Assembly: GCF_000014265.1 (NCBI RefSeq) | Contig: NC_008312.1 | Location: forward strand, 7,230,001-7,262,000 | Reading direction: 5' to 3' | Length of the DNA stretch: 32,000 nt | Source of the DNA: Trichodesmium erythraeum IMS101 | GTDB taxonomy: Bacteria; Cyanobacteriota; Cyanobacteriia; Cyanobacteriales; Microcoleaceae | Part shown: one piece after another, positions 3,810-32,000 of the stretch | Position numbering within the stretch: the stretch's first letter is position 1 | How the letters are laid out: every line of letters begins with the position of its first letter | Position numbers and translations under genes: made by a program | The notes under the pieces: generated by a model | The model's database searches: none | What the model saw: only the letters and a program-made list of their open reading frames with translations | What the model was told of the DNA's origin: nothing

Positions 3810-4319
3810 ATGGAATTAATATCTATTCCCAGTCTATTGAAAAAAAACAATCAGACTGAATTTATCAGGTTTGAAGAGTTTATATTAGATTTGGAAACAC
3901 TGAGTCCAGTTAGGGGTTATTTACAAGTAACTCATTGTGGAAATTATCTGGAAGTTAAAGGAAAATCAGAAACAATTATTACCCTCACTTGTGATAGATG
4001 TTTAAAACAGTATAACTATAAATTAGTGATTAATCCAAAGGAGTTAATTTGGTTAAATAAAGTTACAACTCAAAAAGAGTTATTCCACATAGAGGCGGAA
4101 AATTCTGTGGAACATTTAGTAGAAACTTTGCCTCCAGAGGGAAATTTTAACCCCAAAAAATGGGTATATGAACAGGTTTGTTTAGAAGTTCCTTCAAGAA
4201 AGTTATGTAAGAATAATTGCCAAGGGATAAAATTATCTGGTACGAATACTTCATCATCGGTTTTAGATAGTCGATGGGCAGCTTTAGAGGCGGTAAAAAA
4301 ACAACTGAATAATAGTTGA
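3810..4319 (+). CDS. YceD/DUF177 family protein
   Basis: Cys pairs CDRC...CKNNCQG and a C-terminal DSRWAAL motif, typical of DUF177. Confidence 0.78.
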   Translation: MELISIPSLLKKNNQTEFIRFEEFILDLETLSPVRGYLQVTHCGNYLEVKGKSETIITLTCDRCLKQYNYKLVINPKELIWLNKVTTQKELFHIEAENSVEHLVETLPPEGNFNPKKWVYEQVCLEVPSRKLCKNNCQGIKLSGTNTSSSVLDSRWAALEAVKKQLNNS

Positions 4320-4578
4320 TAGTTTAATATTAAAGTTGCTTGTTAATTATGAAATTAAAAGGAAGGCAGGAAACAGAAAAAAAAGGTGAGAAGGGAGATT
4401 TTTTTGATAACTAATTATTGGGATATCAGATTAGTTAGTATTGTAGAAAACAGGCTGTACAAATGTTTTGTGAACTCCCAACAAGCTAAATTTATCTGAG
4501 TATTTGTTTCATATAGTATGAGCTCAACCGATGGTGAGCAATATCTTAATAAATTAAAGACTTTATTATTAATATTTA

Positions 4579-7876: not shown

Positions 7877-9160
7877 ATGGAATATCTAAGAAATCCTTTC
7901 ACTGTAGGTCAGCCAGTTGCTCCAGAACATTTTGTGGGGCGCAAGAGTTTAATCGCGATCGCATTTGACTAAATATATCGTCGCAGTAATTTGGCTGTTT
8001 GGGGCGGTCCTGGTATGGGAAAAACTTCTTTCCTTCAGCTTCTGACGTCTGAAGAAGTCTGGCTTTCAAAAAATATAAATCCATCTGAAGCGGTAATTAT
8101 TTATCTAAATTGCCAAGAAATTAATCCTTTCACGCCTGCTAGTTTCTGGCGCAGGATTATTAATTTAATTAGAGAAAAAACTAAAGATAATTCTATCCTA
8201 CAACCTATAATTCAAGATTTACTAAAAAAGCCAAAAATAACTAAAGATTACCTACGTTTTGTGTTGAAAAAATTAGGTGAGCAAAATAAATTTTTAGTGC
8301 TACTTTTAGATGATTATGATGCGACTTTTCGTTTCCATTCTCAGTATAGTGAAACTGAGGTAGAAATATTTTTAAGTGAGTGTCGGAATTTGGCATATCA
8401 TTGCTCAGAGAGAAAGTATCTATCAATGATTGTGACTTCATTGCGACGCCTAAGTGAAACTGGTCCTGGTCTGACACCAGAGAAATCTCCTTGGCATAAT
8501 CATTATGCATTTCAACCATTAAAACCATTGAATCAAAAGGAGGTCGAGATTTTGCTTAGTAAAATGGACATGCCACCTGGACTATGTGATGGGATTCAAG
8601 AAATTGCTGGCGGAAATCCACTATTACTACAAAATGCTGGATTTCTTTATTATGATAAAGTGCGGTCTGAAGAAACACTTAGTGCTGAGAAATTTACCAG
8701 GGATTTGATAACAGCAACAGACCATATTTTTCAAGGCACATGGCAACTTGCTAATGAGTTAGAACAGACTTTATTAATGTTAGTTTCTTTATCTAATTTA
8801 GAAGGTCGCGTACAAAATAAACGCTATAATTTAGGTGATATTAATGTTATTTTTAGTCAGAAATCTCGAGAATTAATAGATTTAGAGGAAAGGGGAGTTA
8901 TTAAAGGAAATAGAGAACAAGAAAATACAGGTTATTTATTTTCTTCAACAATTATGGAGTGGTGGGTAATTAAAGAAGTTGAAAATACTAATGTAGAAAC
9001 ACTTAAAGAGAGAGAGAAAGTATTTCTCAATTTGATGAGTCATAAACAAGTAAAAAAAGTAACAAGTGTGATTAAGTATTTGTCAGAAAACAAAGAAGCT
9101 ATAAAATCTGTTGTGAAATGGGTAAGTAAGCTAGCAACGTACTGCGCAAAGTTTTTATAA
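7877..9160 (+). pseudogene. STAND/AAA-like P-loop NTPase interrupted by a single in-frame TAA (7970..7972)
   Basis: The ATG at 7877 encodes MEYLRNPFTVGQPVAPEHFVGRKSLIAIAFD, then TAA, then the same frame continues IYRRSNLAVWGGPGMGKTS (Walker A) and LVLLLDDYD (Walker B). The NPF..G.....F.GR N-terminus matches the N-terminus of the neighbouring NTPase (9247..). The ORF track only shows the TTG-started remainder at 7991..9160. Confidence 0.6.
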
Positions 9161-9246
9161 TTACTTAATTTATATATTGTTAGATGTTGAAAAAAAAATT
9201 ATGTTAATTGGTAATGGTAAAAATATAATCGGGATAAAAATTAATA

Positions 9247-12200
9247 ATGAATATGACATCTACAGAAAATTGGCGAAATCCTTATAATATTGGTGGTTCT
9301 ATTGATGAACCAAAATTGTTTTTTGGTCGAGAAAGTTTGTTTCGTGTTATTGAAGATAATTTGAATAATAATCAACGAATTATTCTTCTACATGGTCAAA
9401 GACGTATAGGTAAATCTTCTGTATTAAAGCAAATTCCTAAACAGGTACGTTTGGATAATCAATTTGTTTTTATTCTGTTAGATTTTCAAGATAAATTCCA
9501 ATGGTCTCTCGATCAAATTTTCCATTATATTATCCAAAAAGTTGCTCAAGAAATTTTTGAGAATTCGGAAGATACCACACATAGTATTGATTTAGTTTCA
9601 CTTGAAGGCTTAGAAAAAGATCCCAATGAATTCAGAGAATTATTGCATTCGATAGTCCAAAAATTGGGGAGTAAAAATTTAGTATTATTACTGGATGAGT
9701 TTGATGTATTTGCAGGCAACAATAATGACTCAACATTTGAAGATTTCTTTGGATACTTAAAGACAATTGTGTCTGAGGAAAAGCAACTTTTTATTATTCC
9801 TGTTGTGGGAAGGCGACTAGATGATATGCCGAAACTTCTAAGATTGTTTAAGGGTGCGCCTAAGCAGGAAATAGGATTACTAGAAAGAGTAAGTACGAAA
9901 AGGTTGATTACACAACCTGCTAGAAAATTTCTGCAATACAATGAGGGAGCAATAAACGAAATTTTTCGACTTTCAGCGGGCCATCCTTACTTTACACAAG
10001 CTATATGTTACGCTGTGTTTGTACAAGCACGGGAAGAGGAAAAAAGTGAGATTTTGGAGAGTGATGTAGGCAGGGCGATCGAGAAGGCTATGGAGTTAAG
10101 CGAAGGAGGGTTGGATTGGTTTCGGGGAGGTTTGCTGAGACTAGAAAGAGTTTTATTTTCAGCAGTAGCAGCAGCTCAAGAGAGTGTTAAGCAAATTCAG
10201 TCACCTCCGGAAAACTTCTTCAATTTGCTTGAAAGATATGGAGTTCAAATAAAACAACTACTTCGTGAGCAACTACTTCAGGCACAACAAGCTTTGAGTG
10301 AAAATGATTTTTTAGATCCATCTGGGTACAAAGTTACAGTTGAGTTTGTTCGTCTTTGGTTAATCAAATATTATCCACTACGCTCAGAAATATGGGAATT
10401 GGAGAAGCTTGATGATGAAGCTAATAATTATTACGAAGGAGCTGATAAATGGCGGATACGAGGGGATATAGATCGTGAGTTAGAGCATTATAATATGGCT
10501 TTAGAACTTAATCCTAACCACTTTAGTGCTTTATTCCGGTTGGCTGCACGATACAAAAAAAAGCAAAGATTTCAGGCAGCATTAGAACTATACGAGAGAG
10601 TTTATAAAATTCATTCACAACGTGGGAAAGAGGAATACATAGAGTTATTGTTTGGTTATGGTGATCATTTAATTCAAGAAAATGGTTCTATAGAGACAAA
10701 GTTAAGTGCAGTTAAAAAGCTATACGAAACGGTCCTAAAAATCGAACCATACAATATGGAAGCTCAAGAGAAACTTAAAGATATTAAAGACAAGGAAAAT
10801 GCTCTATTTTCTGTCAGTAAGAAGTCTAAAACAATTCCAATTCGTAATGTATTTTTGACAGCAGCTTTAGCAGCTCCTCTGCTGATTGGAATAGGAATAT
10901 TTTGGGGATTAAAAACTAAACAAGATCCAGATTTTATACTCGGAAAATCAGAGCTGGATCAGCTAGAAATAGAAAGATTTAGCAGTGGCGAAAAAAGAAT
11001 GTTTGATTGGTATAACAACACAGATGATAATATTAAGTTTATAAGTTGTAATGTAAAATTTAAAGTTTCTAATTACAAAGAAGCAGTTAGTTGTTTTCAA
11101 GAATTTGTAAATTCTAATCGCAACGACCCAGAGCCATTGATTTACTATAACAATTCTCTAGCTCGCGAGAATAATAATAATCCTTTAAAAATAGCTGTAG
11201 TTGTACCAGCAGATAAGAACAGTCAAAGAGCTAAAGCAATTTTGCGAGGTGTTGCTCAGGCACAAAATGAATACAATAAAAACTACTATTTCTCAGGAAA
11301 TAGTAGATTACTGGAAATTATTATTGTCAATGACAGTAATGATGATGAAATATCTCCAAAAGTAGCTCAAGGAATAGTCAGAGATAAAGAAATTTTAGGG
11401 GTAATAGGACATAATTATAGTGATGCTACTAAGGCAGCATTAGAAGTATATCAAAAAGAAAAATTGGCAGTTATTTCTTCTACTAGCACAAGTATAGAAT
11501 TAAAAGGTGATACTTTTTTTAGAACGGTGATTGATGACTCTGTAGCAAGTAAAAAGCTAGCTGAATATGTCAAATTTCGATCTATAGAAAAGATTGTGAT
11601 TTTTTATAACAAAGAAAGTTCATTTAGTAAAAGTATCAATGGTTTTTTTGATTTTTACTTAACAACTTTGAAGCCTGACATAAAGGTTAAAAGTATAGAT
11701 TTGAAACAATCGTCTTTTGATCTCAATAAGGAAGTTCGGGTGGCAGCCAATAACCAAGTTGAAGCTGGAGCGCTATTTGCAAACATAGGAACAATTGACT
11801 TAGCAATAGAGGTTGCTAAAGCTAATTTTAAATTGCCAGAAAGCCAAAGATTAAAATTAATTGCTGGTGATAGTTTTTATAATTGTGATATCTTAGACAA
11901 AGGTGGGGAACCACTTAAAGGTTTGATTTTATCAATACCGTGGCATAAACAATTAGATACAGCAAAAGAGTTTGTAGCTAGAGCAAAAGAGCAGTGGGGA
12001 GAGGAGGAGGAGGTTGGCTGGCGCACTGCTACTAGTTATGATGCAACTAAGGCTTTTATTTCTGCGTTATCTAATTCTGGCGATGATCCCACCAGGTCTA
12101 AAGTGTTGGAAAAACTTAAAGAGGTAAATGTTCCAGCTAATGAAACCTCTGGAGAACATCTTAAATTTAATCCAGAAGGAGAAATTGCTGGTCAAGCAGT

Positions 12201-12270
12201 TCTTGTGGAAGTTGTGGAGTCTCAAAACCCAGCTTGCTCTAGTTTAGATTTTAGTTTAATAAAAGAGTAG
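9247..12270 (+). CDS. Multidomain STAND-type NTPase: TPR repeats, a single TM helix and a periplasmic type-1 (LivK/Peripla_BP_6-like) ligand-binding domain
   Basis: N-terminus NPYNIGGSIDEPKLFFGRE...LLHGQRRIGKSS (Walker A) and LVLLLDEFD (Walker B). TPR-like helices (YNMALELNPNHFSALFRLAARYKKKQRFQAALELYERV). A hydrophobic helix VFLTAALAAPLLIGIGIFWGL at about 10850..10912. The C-terminal KIAVVVPAD...ILRGVAQAQNEYN...LEIIIVNDSNDDE...VIGHNYSDATKAA...ISSTSTS...FFRTV pattern matches branched-chain amino-acid-type binding proteins. Confidence 0.8.
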   Translation: MNMTSTENWRNPYNIGGSIDEPKLFFGRESLFRVIEDNLNNNQRIILLHGQRRIGKSSVLKQIPKQVRLDNQFVFILLDFQDKFQWSLDQIFHYIIQKVAQEIFENSEDTTHSIDLVSLEGLEKDPNEFRELLHSIVQKLGSKNLVLLLDEFDVFAGNNNDSTFEDFFGYLKTIVSEEKQLFIIPVVGRRLDDMPKLLRLFKGAPKQEIGLLERVSTKRLITQPARKFLQYNEGAINEIFRLSAGHPYFTQAICYAVFVQAREEEKSEILESDVGRAIEKAMELSEGGLDWFRGGLLRLERVLFSAVAAAQESVKQIQSPPENFFNLLERYGVQIKQLLREQLLQAQQALSENDFLDPSGYKVTVEFVRLWLIKYYPLRSEIWELEKLDDEANNYYEGADKWRIRGDIDRELEHYNMALELNPNHFSALFRLAARYKKKQRFQAALELYERVYKIHSQRGKEEYIELLFGYGDHLIQENGSIETKLSAVKKLYETVLKIEPYNMEAQEKLKDIKDKENALFSVSKKSKTIPIRNVFLTAALAAPLLIGIGIFWGLKTKQDPDFILGKSELDQLEIERFSSGEKRMFDWYNNTDDNIKFISCNVKFKVSNYKEAVSCFQEFVNSNRNDPEPLIYYNNSLARENNNNPLKIAVVVPADKNSQRAKAILRGVAQAQNEYNKNYYFSGNSRLLEIIIVNDSNDDEISPKVAQGIVRDKEILGVIGHNYSDATKAALEVYQKEKLAVISSTSTSIELKGDTFFRTVIDDSVASKKLAEYVKFRSIEKIVIFYNKESSFSKSINGFFDFYLTTLKPDIKVKSIDLKQSSFDLNKEVRVAANNQVEAGALFANIGTIDLAIEVAKANFKLPESQRLKLIAGDSFYNCDILDKGGEPLKGLILSIPWHKQLDTAKEFVARAKEQWGEEEEVGWRTATSYDATKAFISALSNSGDDPTRSKVLEKLKEVNVPANETSGEHLKFNPEGEIAGQAVLVEVVESQNPACSSLDFSLIKE

Positions 12271-15641: not shown

Positions 15642-17343
15642 GTGGTAATTATACTTAAAAGATTTCAACGAATACCATCAAATTATCAATCTTTTCTATT
15701 TATATCTATACATAGTAATACTTCTAATTTTAACTATCCATTAAATCCTTCAGTATATAAATTTTTTAGCTATATTTATGAACCATTAATTATTGAAAAT
15801 GTTGTCACAGGAGAATTAGAAGCAGATTTAGCTTAATCTTGGGAATTTTCTAGAGACGGACAACAAATAATTATTAAATTAAAAGCATGATTAAAATAAT
15901 AAAATGGAGAAACTGTAACTTCTAATGATGTGGTATTTTCCTATAATAAAATCTATCTAAGTTAGCAAATTATTGCCAGATTTCAAGATTCTATTAAAAT
16001 TGGTCAAAGTTGTGCTTTACTAAATGTCAAAAAAATCGATAATTACCGTATAAAATTTTATACAGTAGAACCTTTTTCTCCTTTGATTAGATATGCTGGA
16101 AGACTACCAATTTTACCTGCACGTGCCCTACAAGAATCAGTTCGTACTATTAACTCTAAAGAAGAATTAAACTATCTAAGAAAATGGTTAACTGATACCC
16201 CGGTAAAAGAAATTATTATTAATGGTATGTATAGACTCAAAAGTTATACTCTACATCAACGAATTATCTTAGAAAATAACCCTTTTTACTGTCGTAAGAA
16301 TGAGCAAGGAAATACTCAGCCTTATATTGAGAATATTGTCTGGCAAGTTATCTCAAATAGAGATAATCAAATCTTAAATTTTTGCTCTGGGGAGCTAGAT
16401 ACAATTAAAGTATAACCAGAAATTTTTAATTTATTAAAAAGAGAAGAAAAACGAGGTAAGTATATTATTTATAATGGTTGGTTTTCATCAGTTTTATCTC
16501 TTTTAATCTGAATCAGGGTCGTAATGCTCAAGGTAAGTCATTTATAAATTCGATTAAGTCTAAATGGTTTAATAAAAAATTTTTAGACAAGGGATAGCTT
16601 ATGCTATTAACAGGAAAACAATAGTAAACAATATATATCGTGAATTAGGTGCCCTTTTATTCACTAATTCCTGTTAAAAGTAATTTTTATCTATCCCCGA
16701 AAGTAGGTCTGAAAGTCTATAAATATAATCTATAAAAAGCAAATGCACTATTAGTTAGTGCTGGTTTTAAATATAACTAAAATGGTGAATTATTAGACAG
16801 TCAAGATAATAGAGTATAATTTACATTGCTATTAACTGCTGGTAGAAAATTCGCAGAAAAAATGGCAATACAAATCAATCAAGATTTAGCAACAATAGGA
16901 ATTAAAATAAATCTACATTTTCTTAGTTTGAATACCAAAGTGAAACGACTAAATTTGTCTAGAAACTGGGAAGCTTATCTAGGTGTTTTTGTAGGAGGAG
17001 GTGTAGAACTTCATGGTGATTATATGATCCGGTCTGTAAATGGCAGACTACACACTTTTAATCAAGGAAGCCAACCTGGAGAAAAAGTAATAGAAGGTAG
17101 AAAGGTAACAGAATAGGAACAATAAATAGATGATTTATATGTCAGAGCATCTCAAGTCCTAGATAAAAAAAACGGAAACAACTTTATACTAAAGCAGAGC
17201 AAATTATTACAGAATAGTTACCTTTTATCTATATGGTAATTCCTTTATAATTTGAGGCGATAAGAAATAGAGTTAAAGATATTAAGTCTGGTAAATATGG
17301 TAGGGGATTCGGGAATTTATATGAATTGCAAATCTCTGATTAA
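15642..17343 (+). pseudogene. Decayed full-length tandem paralogue of the family-5 substrate-binding protein gene
   Basis: ORFs 15642..15836, 16083..16415 and 16826..17116 and the DNA between them are colinear with 13190..14867 through to the shared ending ...ELQISD*. There are many in-frame stops (e.g. GAA->TAA, CAA->TAA, TGG->TAG relative to the intact copy). At least one frameshift lies between 16415 and 16826. Confidence 0.9.
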
Positions 17344-28390: not shown

Positions 28391-28426
28391 GCGATCGCTC
28401 CTCAACTGATGAAGATAAGCGATCGC
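28391..28426. repeat. Direct repeat ATAAGCGATCGCT x2 (two HIP1 octamers 28 bp apart)
   Basis: GCGATCGC at 28391..28398 and 28419..28426, both preceded by ATAA and followed by T. It lies 60-100 nt beyond the 3' end of intron 1. Confidence 0.9.
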
Positions 28427-28538
28427 TAATTTTAAAATTCCTAATTAAATAGGAAGTAATGGGTAAAGTTAATCTACCCTTTCTAATTGCCAGAGAAGTT
28501 AAACTAAGCAATTCTATCACCAGAACTGCTCGTCTTCA

Positions 28539-28572
28539 GAACCGGACGTGAGACTTTCACCTCATCCGGCTC
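28539..28572 (-). ncRNA. Group II intron domain V (catalytic hairpin) of intron 1
   Basis: The minus strand reads GAGCCGGAUGAGGUGAAAGUCUCACGUCCGGUUC. It has the same 34-nt layout as classical domain V (AGC triad, 2-nt bulge, GAAA tetraloop). Confidence 0.9.
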
Positions 28573-28753
28573 CTCAGTGATTAGGCCCTGATTAAAAGAG
28601 TACCTCCACTGTCATAATAAACAGTTTTTACATCGTAGTAATGTCCATAAATTGCAGTTAGCACTTTGTCTTTTTATAGCAGTCATCAGGGAACTTAGGA
28701 AATTCTCACACTCTCAAATTTATTCACAGTAAGAATTTTATTTCTGACTTCTG

Positions 28754-30103
28754 CTATGCCAATTCTATGCTCCAATAAATCAAGTTTGCGTGCCTCAATA
28801 ATCTAACTTGACTGCCATTCTTGTCACTACCAAAAAATTCTCTCTTGTTTTCCCCAATACTTTGCCAATATTTTTGATAAATCCAATGATTATTTTGATT
28901 AGGGTGTCTTCTTTTTGCCCAACCCCAGAGTTTTTGGAATATTAAATTATCCAAATCCTGGAAAATTTTCTTACTCACAAATAATTTCGAGTAATAGTTT
29001 ACCCAACTTTTAACAATAGGGTTGAGTTTTCTGATTAAGACAGCTTGTGATGCAGACTTATATTTATCTATCACCTCAGCAATGTGACAATAATGACTTC
29101 TGATCATCCCCGTACTTGGTTTGATTTTGGTTTTAAAACCCAGCTTACTTTGGTTTTTACTAACCTTATGTTGTCTAATATTAAACCCCAAGAAATCAAA
29201 TCCAGGTTCTTCTTCACCACACCTATATAGTGTGTGATAAATAATAATTTGACTAGGTTTTAATTCCAAACATAAGTCAGATAAGCACTCTCTAATTATA
29301 TATTGGCATTTTTGAACTACCTCAATATTTTTGTGAGCGATCACCAAGTTACCTCCATAACGAATCAAACTTAAACCTTCACATTGATCACTCAGTGCTT
29401 TAGTGTAATGTTTGATTTTTTCTTCTGTATCATGGAAAGCTATATTTGCCAGTAGTGGAGAAATGACTTCCTCCCATTTAAACAAGTCTTTACCATTGAT
29501 CAAACCATCTTTTAACCAAACTCGAATTTGTTTGCGTAAAGTGGGATAGGTATCTAATTTTTTTAATAGTTGTTCATGATCAAAACACTTAAAGCATTGA
29601 CTTATATCAGCTTTCAGTAAATATTTCGGATGAAACTTAACACAATTAACAATTGCTTTCATAGCGTCCTGACATGACTTCGGTAGCTTAAACCCATAAG
29701 AAGAAAGTTCAAACTTTGCTTCCCATTGGTTCTCTAGAGACATCTTGACAAGTATTTGCAAGGGTTGGTCCTTAACAGTACTTATCATTGGTTTAACTTT
29801 GCTATTTAGTTTTAATCTTTTAGCCAAGGCAAAACATTTGTCTGGAGACAATAATTGAACACCACCAACTTCTATTATTTTCTCACCCTGGTTAATTTGA
29901 CTAAACCTACGCACCGCCAACAACCTCCCATACCAAGATTTTATCAGCATTTTTTGGAGCTTACGAACTGCAATAACATCACCACGTTGAGAGGCTCTGT
30001 AGATTCTTTTCTGTAACTTGAAGACCCGACGCTCAACTTTTGTCCAATTAATCTCACGCCACTCTTTCCATTCCCCCGTAGTCTTTAAACTCGTATTAGA
30101 CAT
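28754..30103 (-). CDS. Group II intron-encoded protein with degenerate reverse-transcriptase domain and retained maturase (X) domain
   Basis: 449 aa with no internal stops. RT blocks are recognisable (SYGFKLPKSCQDAM; ADISQCFKCFDHEQLL; ISPLLANIAF) but the active site reads IRYGGNLVI instead of RYADDFVI. The segments corresponding to ..IPKxxGKxRPLGIPT.. and ..GTPQGG.. are missing. The maturase region KLNPIVKSWVNYYS...LWGWAKRRHPN is intact. No HNH/En domain. Confidence 0.85.
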   Translation of the reverse strand: MSNTSLKTTGEWKEWREINWTKVERRVFKLQKRIYRASQRGDVIAVRKLQKMLIKSWYGRLLAVRRFSQINQGEKIIEVGGVQLLSPDKCFALAKRLKLNSKVKPMISTVKDQPLQILVKMSLENQWEAKFELSSYGFKLPKSCQDAMKAIVNCVKFHPKYLLKADISQCFKCFDHEQLLKKLDTYPTLRKQIRVWLKDGLINGKDLFKWEEVISPLLANIAFHDTEEKIKHYTKALSDQCEGLSLIRYGGNLVIAHKNIEVVQKCQYIIRECLSDLCLELKPSQIIIYHTLYRCGEEEPGFDFLGFNIRQHKVSKNQSKLGFKTKIKPSTGMIRSHYCHIAEVIDKYKSASQAVLIRKLNPIVKSWVNYYSKLFVSKKIFQDLDNLIFQKLWGWAKRRHPNQNNHWIYQKYWQSIGENKREFFGSDKNGSQVRLLRHANLIYWSIELA

Positions 30104-31046
30104 TTATATTACTTACTCAAACTCTACATTCCAAATCACCGTGTGTCCGTCTGCATATCCCATTAAATTAACAAAGGGCTTTTGCTTGTGACACAATCCC
30201 TCCCAATCAAACATACGGTTAGCACCTACTTGAATTTACTATCTCAGTTATCAGTTATCAGTACCTCAGTTGATTTTTGTTATTCCCTTAAAATGCTTTA
30301 TTATATAAACATCTTTCTTAAAAAAACTTGGGCAAAATAGACAAGTTATCTTTAAGTCTTTGAGAGACTTTTTCAGGAGAACAAAGTGCATTGAAAAATA
30401 CATTTTTTTGATAAATTAAGTAGTTTTGCAGCAACCTGCCAACCTACTATACTCTTTCTCCCTTTTGCGCTGCTCCCTTTTGCATTGCTCCCCACAATAT
30501 TTTCAGAAGTTTCTGATAACAGATAACTTCAAATAGGAAGCTTAAAAGCTTATTTTTTACTCAAGTATTGCACTAAAAAAAAGAATTATAGCACTTCCCA
30601 GAGTAATTGAGATTCTCGCGCCTCTCAAATATTGTCATAACAAGAATGTACGGGGTAATGGCCAGAAAGCCCCTACTTTTTAATTGTGACTTCTGTGGCT
30701 GAGTGTTAATAAATAGCTATTCAAGAGTTTTTCATGGGTTACTTCGTTCCAAATGACCTTATCTATATACCTTTAGGATGATGCTTTGCGCCGGGTTTAG
30801 GGGAAGTGCTTGTTAGTCGAACCAAATCTCGCTAACTCCCTATCCTTTGCCTTTTGGCTCCAGTGTCACAGCTTATTTCACTGGTTGAACGTAACGACGC
30901 TTCACTCACATCTTCGCACTATAGCTATCCAATGGGTATTTTGCTCGATGGGAACCAACCTAAGCTGTCAGTTGTACCACCTTTTCACCCCGCTTTACGG
31001 ATTGGTTGGGTAGGAGAAAGTACGTCGCCGTATCTCTCCCCCCTAA

Positions 31047-31081
31047 GAACCGGACTTGACAGTTGTCCCATCATCCGGCTC
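31047..31081 (-). ncRNA. Group II intron domain V of intron 2
   Basis: The minus strand reads GAGCCGGAUGAUGGGACAACUGUCAAGUCCGGUUC. It folds as lower stem GAGCCGGAU/GUCCGGUUC, an AA bulge, a 5-bp upper stem and a 5-nt loop. Confidence 0.75.
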
Positions 31082-31362
31082 AAGCCTCTTGCCTTACAGA
31101 ACATTTGCCTGTGTATATATATTTGTGACAACATTTATACAAGTGGACTAGGCCATAAATTTTGTCCATGCCACCGTCTTTCACCCTTATTTTTTTGATG
31201 GGTGTGCAGTTTCTCTCAGTTAAATAAGTGTTCACCACTCATAGGAACATTTCCAGCTCTGAGCTTAGGTAATTTTGTAGTATTTTGAACCTTGACCCGA
31301 TGAGCTTTGTCATATTTTGTATAACGTTATTTCAAATATTTGGTTAAAGAGGGGTTCTCCGG

Positions 31363-32000
31363 CTATGCCGTGCCTTTAATTTTTACATGACGTTGAATGG
31401 GAACTTTTCCTAGTCGGCAGATGGCTATTGTTTCCTTCTTGCCATACCTATTGCTTATGTTTGTTGCGAAAGTCCACTTGTTTCCGTTGACGGTTTTGAA
31501 GTATTTCTTTCGCACCCATTCCTTACCTTTTCCTTTTTGTTTCCCCACTCGCTTCGAGTGTCTTCTTAATGACCATTGCCAGAGTGATTTCCAAATTTCG
31601 TGGTCAACATAGGAAAATATTCGTTGACTTACACCATGTCTGTAGTAGTTCCCCCATCCTCTAATAATTGAATTAAGGTTTGCAATTACTGCTTCTTGTG
31701 TACTGGTCGGGTGTGCTTTGAGCCACCCCCGAATTAGTGTGAGAAATTCCTTAACTTTCTCTTTTTGTGGAACTATGAAGCAGCTACCGTTGAACTGGCG
31801 GACATTGAACCCTAAAAAGTTGAATCCTTGTTCAATATGAACTAAGTTGGTTTTGTCCTTATTAAGTTCTAATCCTCTTTCTGATAGCCATTTTTCAATA
31901 GTGGGGATTATCGCTTTGATGTCTTCCTCACTTCGAGCGGTGATTATGAAGTCATCAGCGTATCGGATAAATCCGTATTTATCTAACTTCTTTTTCTTGG
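31363..32000 (-). CDS. Group II intron reverse transcriptase/maturase, C-terminal part (5' end outside window)
   Basis: My translation of the minus strand is open from 32000 down to the TAG at 31363. It reads ..KKKLDKYGFIRYADDFIITARSEEDI...GFNFLGFNV...IIRGWGNYYRHGV...LWQWSLRRHSKR...IQRHVKIKGTA*. YADD is intact, the X domain is present and there is no En domain. The ORF track lists only its last 61 codons (31363..31548). Confidence 0.9.
   Translation of the reverse strand, partial: KKKKLDKYGFIRYADDFIITARSEEDIKAIIPTIEKWLSERGLELNKDKTNLVHIEQGFNFLGFNVRQFNGSCFIVPQKEKVKEFLTLIRGWLKAHPTSTQEAVIANLNSIIRGWGNYYRHGVSQRIFSYVDHEIWKSLWQWSLRRHSKRVGKQKGKGKEWVRKKYFKTVNGNKWTFATNISNRYGKKETIAICRLGKVPIQRHVKIKGTA

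Follow-up and report, generated by a model that had tools for sequence, protein, structure and literature searches.

A group II intron protein with degenerate reverse transcriptase motifs, probably retained as a splicing maturase, in the Tery_4732 twintron of Trichodesmium erythraeum

The 32,000-nucleotide stretch of Trichodesmium erythraeum IMS101 DNA analysed here (contig NC_008312.1, positions 7,230,001 to 7,262,000, in the following called the window) carries at 28754..30103 on the minus strand an open reading frame (ORF) of 449 amino acids, running from ATG to TAG, which encodes a group II intron-encoded protein (IEP) with degenerate reverse transcriptase (RT) motifs. An exact-sequence look-up identified the product as ABG53691.1 / WP_011614008.1, annotated in the database as 'Group II intron, maturase-specific'; we take its locus tag to be Tery_4730. 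A sequence-only reading of the window had proposed that this ORF codes for a MatK-like, maturase-only protein, kept open although its RT active site is destroyed. That reading named no strand; the plus-strand translation of 28754..30103 is full of stops.

Domain IV of the outer ('host') intron Tr.e.I7 of the published Tery_4732 twintron contains the ORF, a setting that the sequence-only reading had not recognised. Tery_4732 of T. erythraeum IMS101 holds a 5.4-kb twintron that is sequentially spliced in vivo (Pfreundt & Hess 2015, PMC4649490), and the splicing which the sequence-only reading presupposed is thereby already documented. In that study, the outer intron Tr.e.I7 is described as a IIB2 intron with an unusually large domain II and an IEP of 449 amino acids, and the inner intron Tr.e.I8 as inserted in its domain I (PMC4649490). 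The element in the window is Tr.e.I7 itself, with which it agrees in the 3' exon, the length of the IEP (449 residues), the large size of domain II and the presence of an inner intron within domain I.

The 3' exon of the host gene Tery_4732+ was located at 28469..28497 (minus strand). Its first two bases finish an Ile codon, followed by LWQLERVD and a TAA stop. The published spliced host protein ends with ...NQILWQLERVD, and the window sequence right after domain VI encodes (I)LWQLERVD and a stop, which shows that the window contains the 3' part of the Tery_4732 twintron; tblastn with the published spliced protein (PMC4649490) matched 28498..28472. Domains V and VI of the outer intron occupy 28498..28575 on the minus strand (Rfam Intron_gpII 59.9 bits, gathering score 40; domain V model 64.9 bits), with the 3' splice site directly after 28498. 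The 3' splice junction, UUUAAC followed by UUCUCUGG, is the same in 11 orthologous loci, in all of which domains V and VI are intact (56-60 bits, Rfam) and domain V is nearly invariant. The 5' junction, AACCAAA followed by GUGCGAUUC, is the same across the orthologues, too; in the window copy, the 5' exon and the first 153 nt of the outer intron are cut off by the end of the window. The segment 28576..28753 (minus strand), which separates the ORF stop from domain V, forms the non-coding 3' arm of domain IV; this arm is 83-693 nt long among the orthologues. ABG53691.1 thus has its ORF in domain IV of a group II intron, with domains V and VI 178 nt downstream, conserved sequence of domains I to III upstream and defined splice sites. 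Domains V and VI, the GUGCG 5' end seen in the orthologues and the nesting of the inner intron in domain I mark a IIB ribozyme in a twintron. Permissive Rfam searches with models of domains I to IV returned nothing besides domains V and VI.

Upstream of the ORF, a conserved segment at 30104..30261 (minus strand), assigned to domain III and the 5' arm of domain IV, shows 89-93% identity to single-intron orthologues. About 50 nt right before the ATG are almost identical in 12 of 12 sequences, a conservation above that of the ORF itself. A DIVa-type stem-loop around the start codon was considered and rejected, since the fold was not significant (z = +1.55) and covariation was not detected, the latter because the sequence is nearly invariant. 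With neither a significant fold nor covariation before the ATG, we only infer that this invariant stretch may be a DIVa-like primary binding site of the IEP. Further upstream, an AT-rich expansion of about 456 nt at 30262..30718 (minus strand) is the counterpart of what the published model shows as an 'atypically large domain II' (PMC4649490). BLASTN of this expansion against three orthologues (L001, L009 and L004) gave no match, and the corresponding segments there measure about 75-134 nt.

The 3' part of domain I of the outer intron, beginning with outer-intron nucleotide 154, extends over 30719..31004 (minus strand) and is 97% identical to positions 154-439 of the intron in L001. Alignment to single-intron orthologues places the inner intron after outer-intron nucleotide 153. 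A GTGCG near 30919 (minus strand) was considered as a 5' splice site, which would have implied a second intron in tandem, and discarded, as it is internal to domain I in the same alignment. Domains V and VI of the inner intron Tr.e.I8 were found at 31005..31083 (minus strand, Rfam Intron_gpII 48.9 bits). The C-terminal 211 codons of its IEP, cut by the window edge, lie at 31363..31998 (minus strand, Pfam RVT_1 and GIIM). This protein keeps the catalytic YADD (FIRYADDFII) and ends with ...KIKGTA and a stop before any endonuclease domain; the inner-intron IEP is reported to be shorter in T. erythraeum than in metagenome copies (PMC4649490). As the inner IEP has a YADD and the outer one has not, a single twintron combines an RT-intact and an RT-dead protein. 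Basal domain I of the outer intron carries tandem repeats in several orthologous loci, namely (GCAGAAG)n in L007:3160-3260 and L008:3020-3080 and (TTTTGAA)n-like repeats in L003, L005 and L006 (intron nucleotides about 90-130). They sit where T. erythraeum reportedly has a 62-nt insertion. This region looks like a hotspot of simple-repeat expansion inside a working ribozyme.

The 449 codons form a single ATG-to-TAG frame, as the sequence-only reading had stated. From base composition, the chance of 450 open codons is 4e-15 to 2e-17, and the remaining five frames of 28754..30103 contain 25-54 stops each. The openness had originally been set against pseudogenes of the window said to have a stop every few dozen to 150 nt. 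This description is somewhat overstated, with ORFs of 96-110 amino acids present inside 15642..17343. Instead of the pseudogene contrast, the dN/dS ratio (omega) of orthologues, the phase of insertions and deletions (indels) and the other reading frames served as controls.

ABG53691.1 shows the order of domains typical of a group II IEP, with an RT0 extension (residues 1-97), a degenerate fingers/palm region (98-309), the X/thumb domain (310-413) and a truncated remnant of the D domain (414-449). The corresponding Pfam matches are RVT_N at 15-97 (2.9e-25), RVT_1 at 101-309 (8.2e-17) and GIIM at 337-413 (2.5e-19). The group II RT/maturase equivalog of NCBIfam, TIGR04416, scored 168.8 bits compared to a cutoff of 300, which is consistent with a degenerate member of the family. 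The closest relative of ABG53691.1 with a solved structure, and the closest solved one in sequence, is the IEP of the T.el4h intron of Thermosynechococcus elongatus (PDB 6me0, 8fli), to which it aligned with E = 7.7e-54 (T.el4h RT, 6me0_C). The AlphaFold model has a mean predicted local distance difference test (pLDDT) score of 71.8, with the highest values in the X domain (85-92) and the lowest around the deleted finger elements. The best Foldseek matches of this model in the PDB were the T.el4h IEP bound to its intron (8fli_B, 2.6e-19; 6me0_C, 9.1e-17).

The complete set of RT motifs 1-7 with a catalytic YADD is not present in ABG53691.1. Both the DNA and the alignment to 6me0_C show that YADD is replaced by YGGN at residues 249-252 (codons TAT GGA GGT AAC). 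Comparison with 40 intact relatives set the boundaries of two in-frame deletions: 17 amino acids of RT1-2, VWIPKPGTEEKRPLGIP, are missing after residue 108, and the six amino acids GTPQGG of RT4 after residue 212. At the C-terminus, 19 amino acids of the D domain and the entire HNH endonuclease domain are lost; the intact relatives carry HNH domain PF01844, before which the proteins of the clade described below stop. The tail after the X domain is the least conserved part of the protein. The YGGN, the deletions of RT1-2 and RT4 and the degenerate tail, which has the highest omega and in which 20% of the conserved positions are kept, had been recognised by the sequence-only reading. Since the finger hairpin and the RT4 loop, as well as the two aspartates of YADD, are gone or unconstrained, the loss of polymerase function is as good as shown, as far as sequence can tell.

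A protein search with ABG53691.1 yielded about 22 relatives of 438-520 amino acids with 57-78% identity, from Trichodesmium, Dapis, Okeania, Hydrocoleum and marine cyanobacterial metagenome-assembled genomes (MAGs). The named members of this RT-dead clade are all Microcoleaceae. Next below the clade, the search returned full-length IEPs of about 50% identity with YADD and HNH. The clade sample comprised 23 proteins overall, 12 orthologues with DNA, 11 genome loci, 5 metagenome loci and the loci L198 and L199. The 17-residue deletion of RT1-2 is common to all 23 proteins, and all of them end before the endonuclease domain. None of the 23, from four genera, has a YADD, so that the intact allele whose discovery would have pointed to recent damage was not found in the sample. 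Instead, the position reads YGGN, YAGN, YADN, YAGD, YGDS, YGNS, YGGS, YASN, YGSS or SAGN. GTPQGG is deleted in most members and replaced by MARGG or MAQGE in one subgroup, and the RT3 aspartate is replaced in few (by N, E or K). From these alignments the erosion of the IEP looks stepwise, with the RT1-2 deletion and the loss of the endonuclease in all members and an RT4 state that differs by subgroup. As the lesions are common to the clade and no intact-YADD allele was seen, the damage is ancient and not recent.

In the 11 genome loci the clade ORF resides in one host gene, between codon 80 (...REGNQ) and LWQLERVD. In the 5 metagenome loci and in L198 and L199 it lies in that host gene, too, where flanks are present. 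Among the genome loci compared, no locus of an intron with intact RT carried the Tery_4732+ exons. The identical host codon wherever flanks are available indicates an intron that is fixed and vertically inherited. Apart from the window, L004, a locus from a Trichodesmium MAG, was the sole one in which a second set of domains V and VI, belonging to the inner intron, was detected; in Okeania, Dapis and Hydrocoleum, the site is occupied by the outer intron without the inner one. This limited occurrence of the inner intron implies that the outer intron is older and more widespread than the twintron.

All 12 orthologous ORFs are open (441-520 amino acids). The ORF of Hydrocoleum sp. CS-953 (L198:3486-5005) contains an exact duplication of the segment for residues 97-160, with a frame change, which is due either to a tandem duplication of very recent date or to an artefact of assembly. 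An in-frame, stop-free insertion of about 147 nt (48-50 amino acids) was observed right after the LLAVR motif of RT0 in L004 (approximately 4180-4330) and L006 (approximately 4190-4340), and in the proteins P0011, P0012, P0015 and P0016. The insertion point is shared between a Trichodesmium MAG and an Okeania MAG. An origin of this insertion as a hairpin resembling a miniature inverted-repeat transposable element was rejected because the fold was not significant (z = -0.73).

The ORF is under purifying selection and its frame is preserved. Over the 66 pairs formed by the 12 orthologues, dN/dS according to NG86 ranged from 0.20 to 0.56 with a median of 0.31; all bootstrap 95% intervals fall into the range 0.20-0.49, short of 1 in every case. 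YN00/maximum likelihood gave 0.32-0.51. Close copies with a ratio near 1, which would have spoken against the selection postulated by the sequence-only reading, were thus not encountered. Indels in multiples of three account for 91% of the pairwise events in the ORF compared to 25% and 35% in the flanking non-coding intron segments, the latter value being that of the 3' arm at 28576..28753. Over the matching columns, intact IEPs have a median omega of 0.17 (0.10-0.26). The constraint on the clade is therefore about half that of a working RT-maturase, yet clearly present.

Selection is unevenly distributed over the protein. Omega is lowest in the X/thumb domain (0.21-0.29) and highest in the C-terminal tail (0.29-0.54). 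Positions with at least 90% conservation in intact IEPs are kept by the clade to 62% in X, 56% in RT0, 37% in fingers/palm and 20% in the tail. RT0 and X/thumb are the domains that contact the intron RNA in solved IEP-intron complexes. The 5' exon of the host gene has an omega of 0.023. Its dS values correlate with those of the IEP (Spearman 0.78, p = 3e-12) and are of similar magnitude, which is consistent with an intron inherited together with a gene under strong constraint.

Catalytic motifs lost with the X domain kept, purifying selection and an intron immobile at one site are marks of a splicing-only IEP, and these three were found here. We consider it probable that Tr.e.I7 has become immobile and is passed on vertically, and that its protein has been preserved for a role as splicing maturase. 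The ORF product would be a domesticated group II intron protein without DNA polymerisation, and in the absence of the latter the intron would no longer be mobilised. It may still bind the intron RNA and aid its folding and splicing, and would hence be retained by selection, as splicing would be needed for the expression of the strongly conserved host gene Tery_4732+. We infer that the selected function is maturase activity in cis.

Several observations weigh against a retained maturase. Omega of the clade is about twice that of intact relatives, indicating relaxed constraint, although such a relaxation is expected once one of two functions is lost. Two copies in the databases are shortened, namely P0018, in which an internal segment is exactly duplicated and the frame changes, and P0020, whose sequence diverges at the end of a contig. 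Both look like assembly artefacts or very recent events and were judged uninformative; real decay may have occurred in some lineages. The ribozyme might self-splice in vivo without the protein, protein-level expression data on ABG53691.1 were not found, and the stretch before the ATG shows no significant fold or covariation, as mentioned above.

Purifying selection shows that the protein is used but not what for. It is therefore conceivable, if unlikely, that the protein is selected for a function other than or beyond the splicing of its own intron, either as a general splicing factor in trans or as an RNA-binding regulator of host-gene expression. T. erythraeum has ten introns lacking an ORF which undergo splicing in vivo (PMC4143802; PMC4649490), and the chloroplast protein MatK took the way to a trans-acting factor (PMC4424553). 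The action in trans on ORF-less introns, which the sequence-only reading had suggested, found no support in our data: among the matches listed, every copy of this intron type is in one host gene, neither paralogous nor ORF-less copies of it were found, and no ORF-less paralogue with the domain VI of the clade was seen. As the domain V used as a probe for paralogues in metagenomes is common to many cyanobacterial introns, these matches are weak evidence against paralogues. The protein is also kept in Okeania and Dapis. A trans-acting maturase of T. erythraeum has been shown experimentally, but this is the IEP of the RIR intron, a different protein from a different intron of the same organism; according to the passage in PMC12584367 that refers to Meng, Wang & Liu 2005, it is a full-length RT that acts on closely related introns, splicing related ORF-less dnaN introns in trans. 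It appears distinctly improbable to us that the protein has become a general splicing factor under host control, serving its own intron and also some of the approximately ten introns without an ORF that interrupt housekeeping genes in Trichodesmium and its relatives. If it were true, a free-living bacterium would provide an example of a selfish retroelement turned into shared splicing machinery. To our knowledge this step is otherwise documented only in organelles, and it has been invoked for the origin of the spliceosome.

Selection might alternatively act on the translation of the ORF, i.e. ribosome transit through domain IV, or on RNA structure and not on the protein. The ORF sits inside a structured ribozyme, and the flanking intron RNA (84-88% identity) is more conserved than the ORF (81%). 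Selection of this kind predicts a dN/dS of about 1, whereas values of 0.2-0.5 were observed with the lowest in X and the highest in the tail; furthermore, ancestral residues are kept in a domain-specific pattern and the predicted model folds as an IEP. We therefore regard this explanation as very unlikely. Even less can be said for a decaying relic which is open by chance or was inactivated recently. Besides the relaxed omega and the two shortened database copies, such a relic would account for the variable C-terminal ends, and the 449-residue form of T. erythraeum stops prematurely compared to metagenome copies (PMC4649490). However, the lesions are common to four genera, with dS reaching about 0.9, none of the 12 orthologous ORFs is interrupted and their indels preserve the frame, and the chance of such an open frame is about 1e-15. 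Decay is thus scarcely credible as an explanation.

Residual polymerase activity from a non-canonical active site, with an intron that is still mobile, is equally hard to believe: two clade members read YAGD or YADN, but every member lacks the RT1-2 finger segment, RT4 is either missing or mutated, some members have another residue for the RT3 aspartate, the endonuclease is absent, only a single insertion site was seen among the matches listed, and the free variation at the YADD position implies that catalysis is not under constraint. The precedent in favour of such activity is T.el4h, an intron in an essential tRNA gene whose native IEP has YAGD and keeps a very low mobility, a single G-to-D change making it highly mobile (PMC2882425). 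T.el4h retains RT1-2, RT4 and D/endonuclease, in contrast to the Trichodesmium clade, whose deletions are irreversible.

A retained splicing maturase has its counterparts among the known degenerate, splicing-only IEPs, which include MatK, MatR and the protein of Euglena psbC intron 4 (PMC4424553). Like MatK, MatR and nMat, the Trichodesmium protein has lost RT motifs and endonuclease and kept X; its intron, too, sits immobile in a conserved gene and is inherited vertically, and the protein is under purifying selection (PMC4424553). The designation as MatK-like stands in this functional sense only. The Trichodesmium IEP is of the IIB/cyanobacterial type with T.el4h as its nearest solved relative, whereas MatK belongs to IIA, and it aligns over RT0 and RT2a-7, MatK over motifs 5-7 only. 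A Pfam scan at E <= 1 returned RVT_N, GIIM and RVT_1 but neither MatK_N nor Intron_maturas2. Beyond the general IEP fold, the likeness to MatK would therefore be one of functional analogy and not of descent within the MatK family.

Degenerate IEPs are rare in bacteria, and O.i.I2 in radC of Oceanobacillus iheyensis has been called 'the only known example' (Zimmerly & Semper 2015, PMC4424553). The two systems share a bacterial host, an intron in a cellular gene and an IEP that lacks YADD and other motifs but is open (PMC4424553). O.i.I2 differs in having an ML-class IEP and in belonging to another phylum, and the review rests its case on the open ORF of one copy and on the host gene. For the Trichodesmium clade, dN/dS, indel phase and site conservation from 12-23 orthologues are added. 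The Tery_4732 locus would thus be a second and much better documented bacterial case.

Bacterial group II introns are generally regarded as mobile retroelements that persist by moving, and stable, splicing-only introns with degenerate maturases are considered a speciality of organelles. The intron described here has been a fixture of a conserved cyanobacterial gene since a time when Trichodesmium, Okeania, Dapis and Hydrocoleum had not yet split, and its protein appears to have lost the polymerase parts step by step while under selection. The locus also offers a built-in contrast, with a younger inner intron with intact YADD inside the older RT-dead one. Since the system is bacterial and testable in E. 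coli, for which work on the RIR-intron IEP is the experimental precedent, it may reveal what portions of an IEP splicing by itself requires. The element and the category are already known; what is new is the recognition of the IEP as RT-dead and kept under selection since before the genera diverged. The text of PMC4649490, beyond which our literature search found no further paper discussing ABG53691.1, does not contain 'YADD', states that 'no conserved domain is lost' and did not find the twintron location outside Trichodesmium. Our results correct both the statement on the domains and the confinement of the insertion to Trichodesmium.

Just downstream of the host-gene stop, at 28395..28445 (minus strand), two GCGATCGC palindromes of the HIP1 type lie about 22 nt apart in a short, imperfect direct repeat, AGCGATCGCTTAT. 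In the regions around the orthologous host genes, cobalamin riboswitch matches just over the gathering score were obtained in two Okeania loci (L008:42-205 and L009:630-795, on the minus strand of the loci). They lie about 2.5 kb upstream of the host gene and are unrelated to the intron. Elsewhere in the window, two adjacent ORFs at 7991..12270 (plus strand) have NACHT/STAND-type NTPase domains. The second of these, with 1007 amino acids, also contains TPR repeats and a C-terminal periplasmic-binding-protein domain, an unusual combination. Further genes of the window look ordinary and encode a DUF2808 protein, a YidC-like protein, an AAA ATPase, a family 5 solute-binding protein (SBP_bac_5), a TPR protein, PmbA/TldD and a Tab2-like RNA-binding protein.

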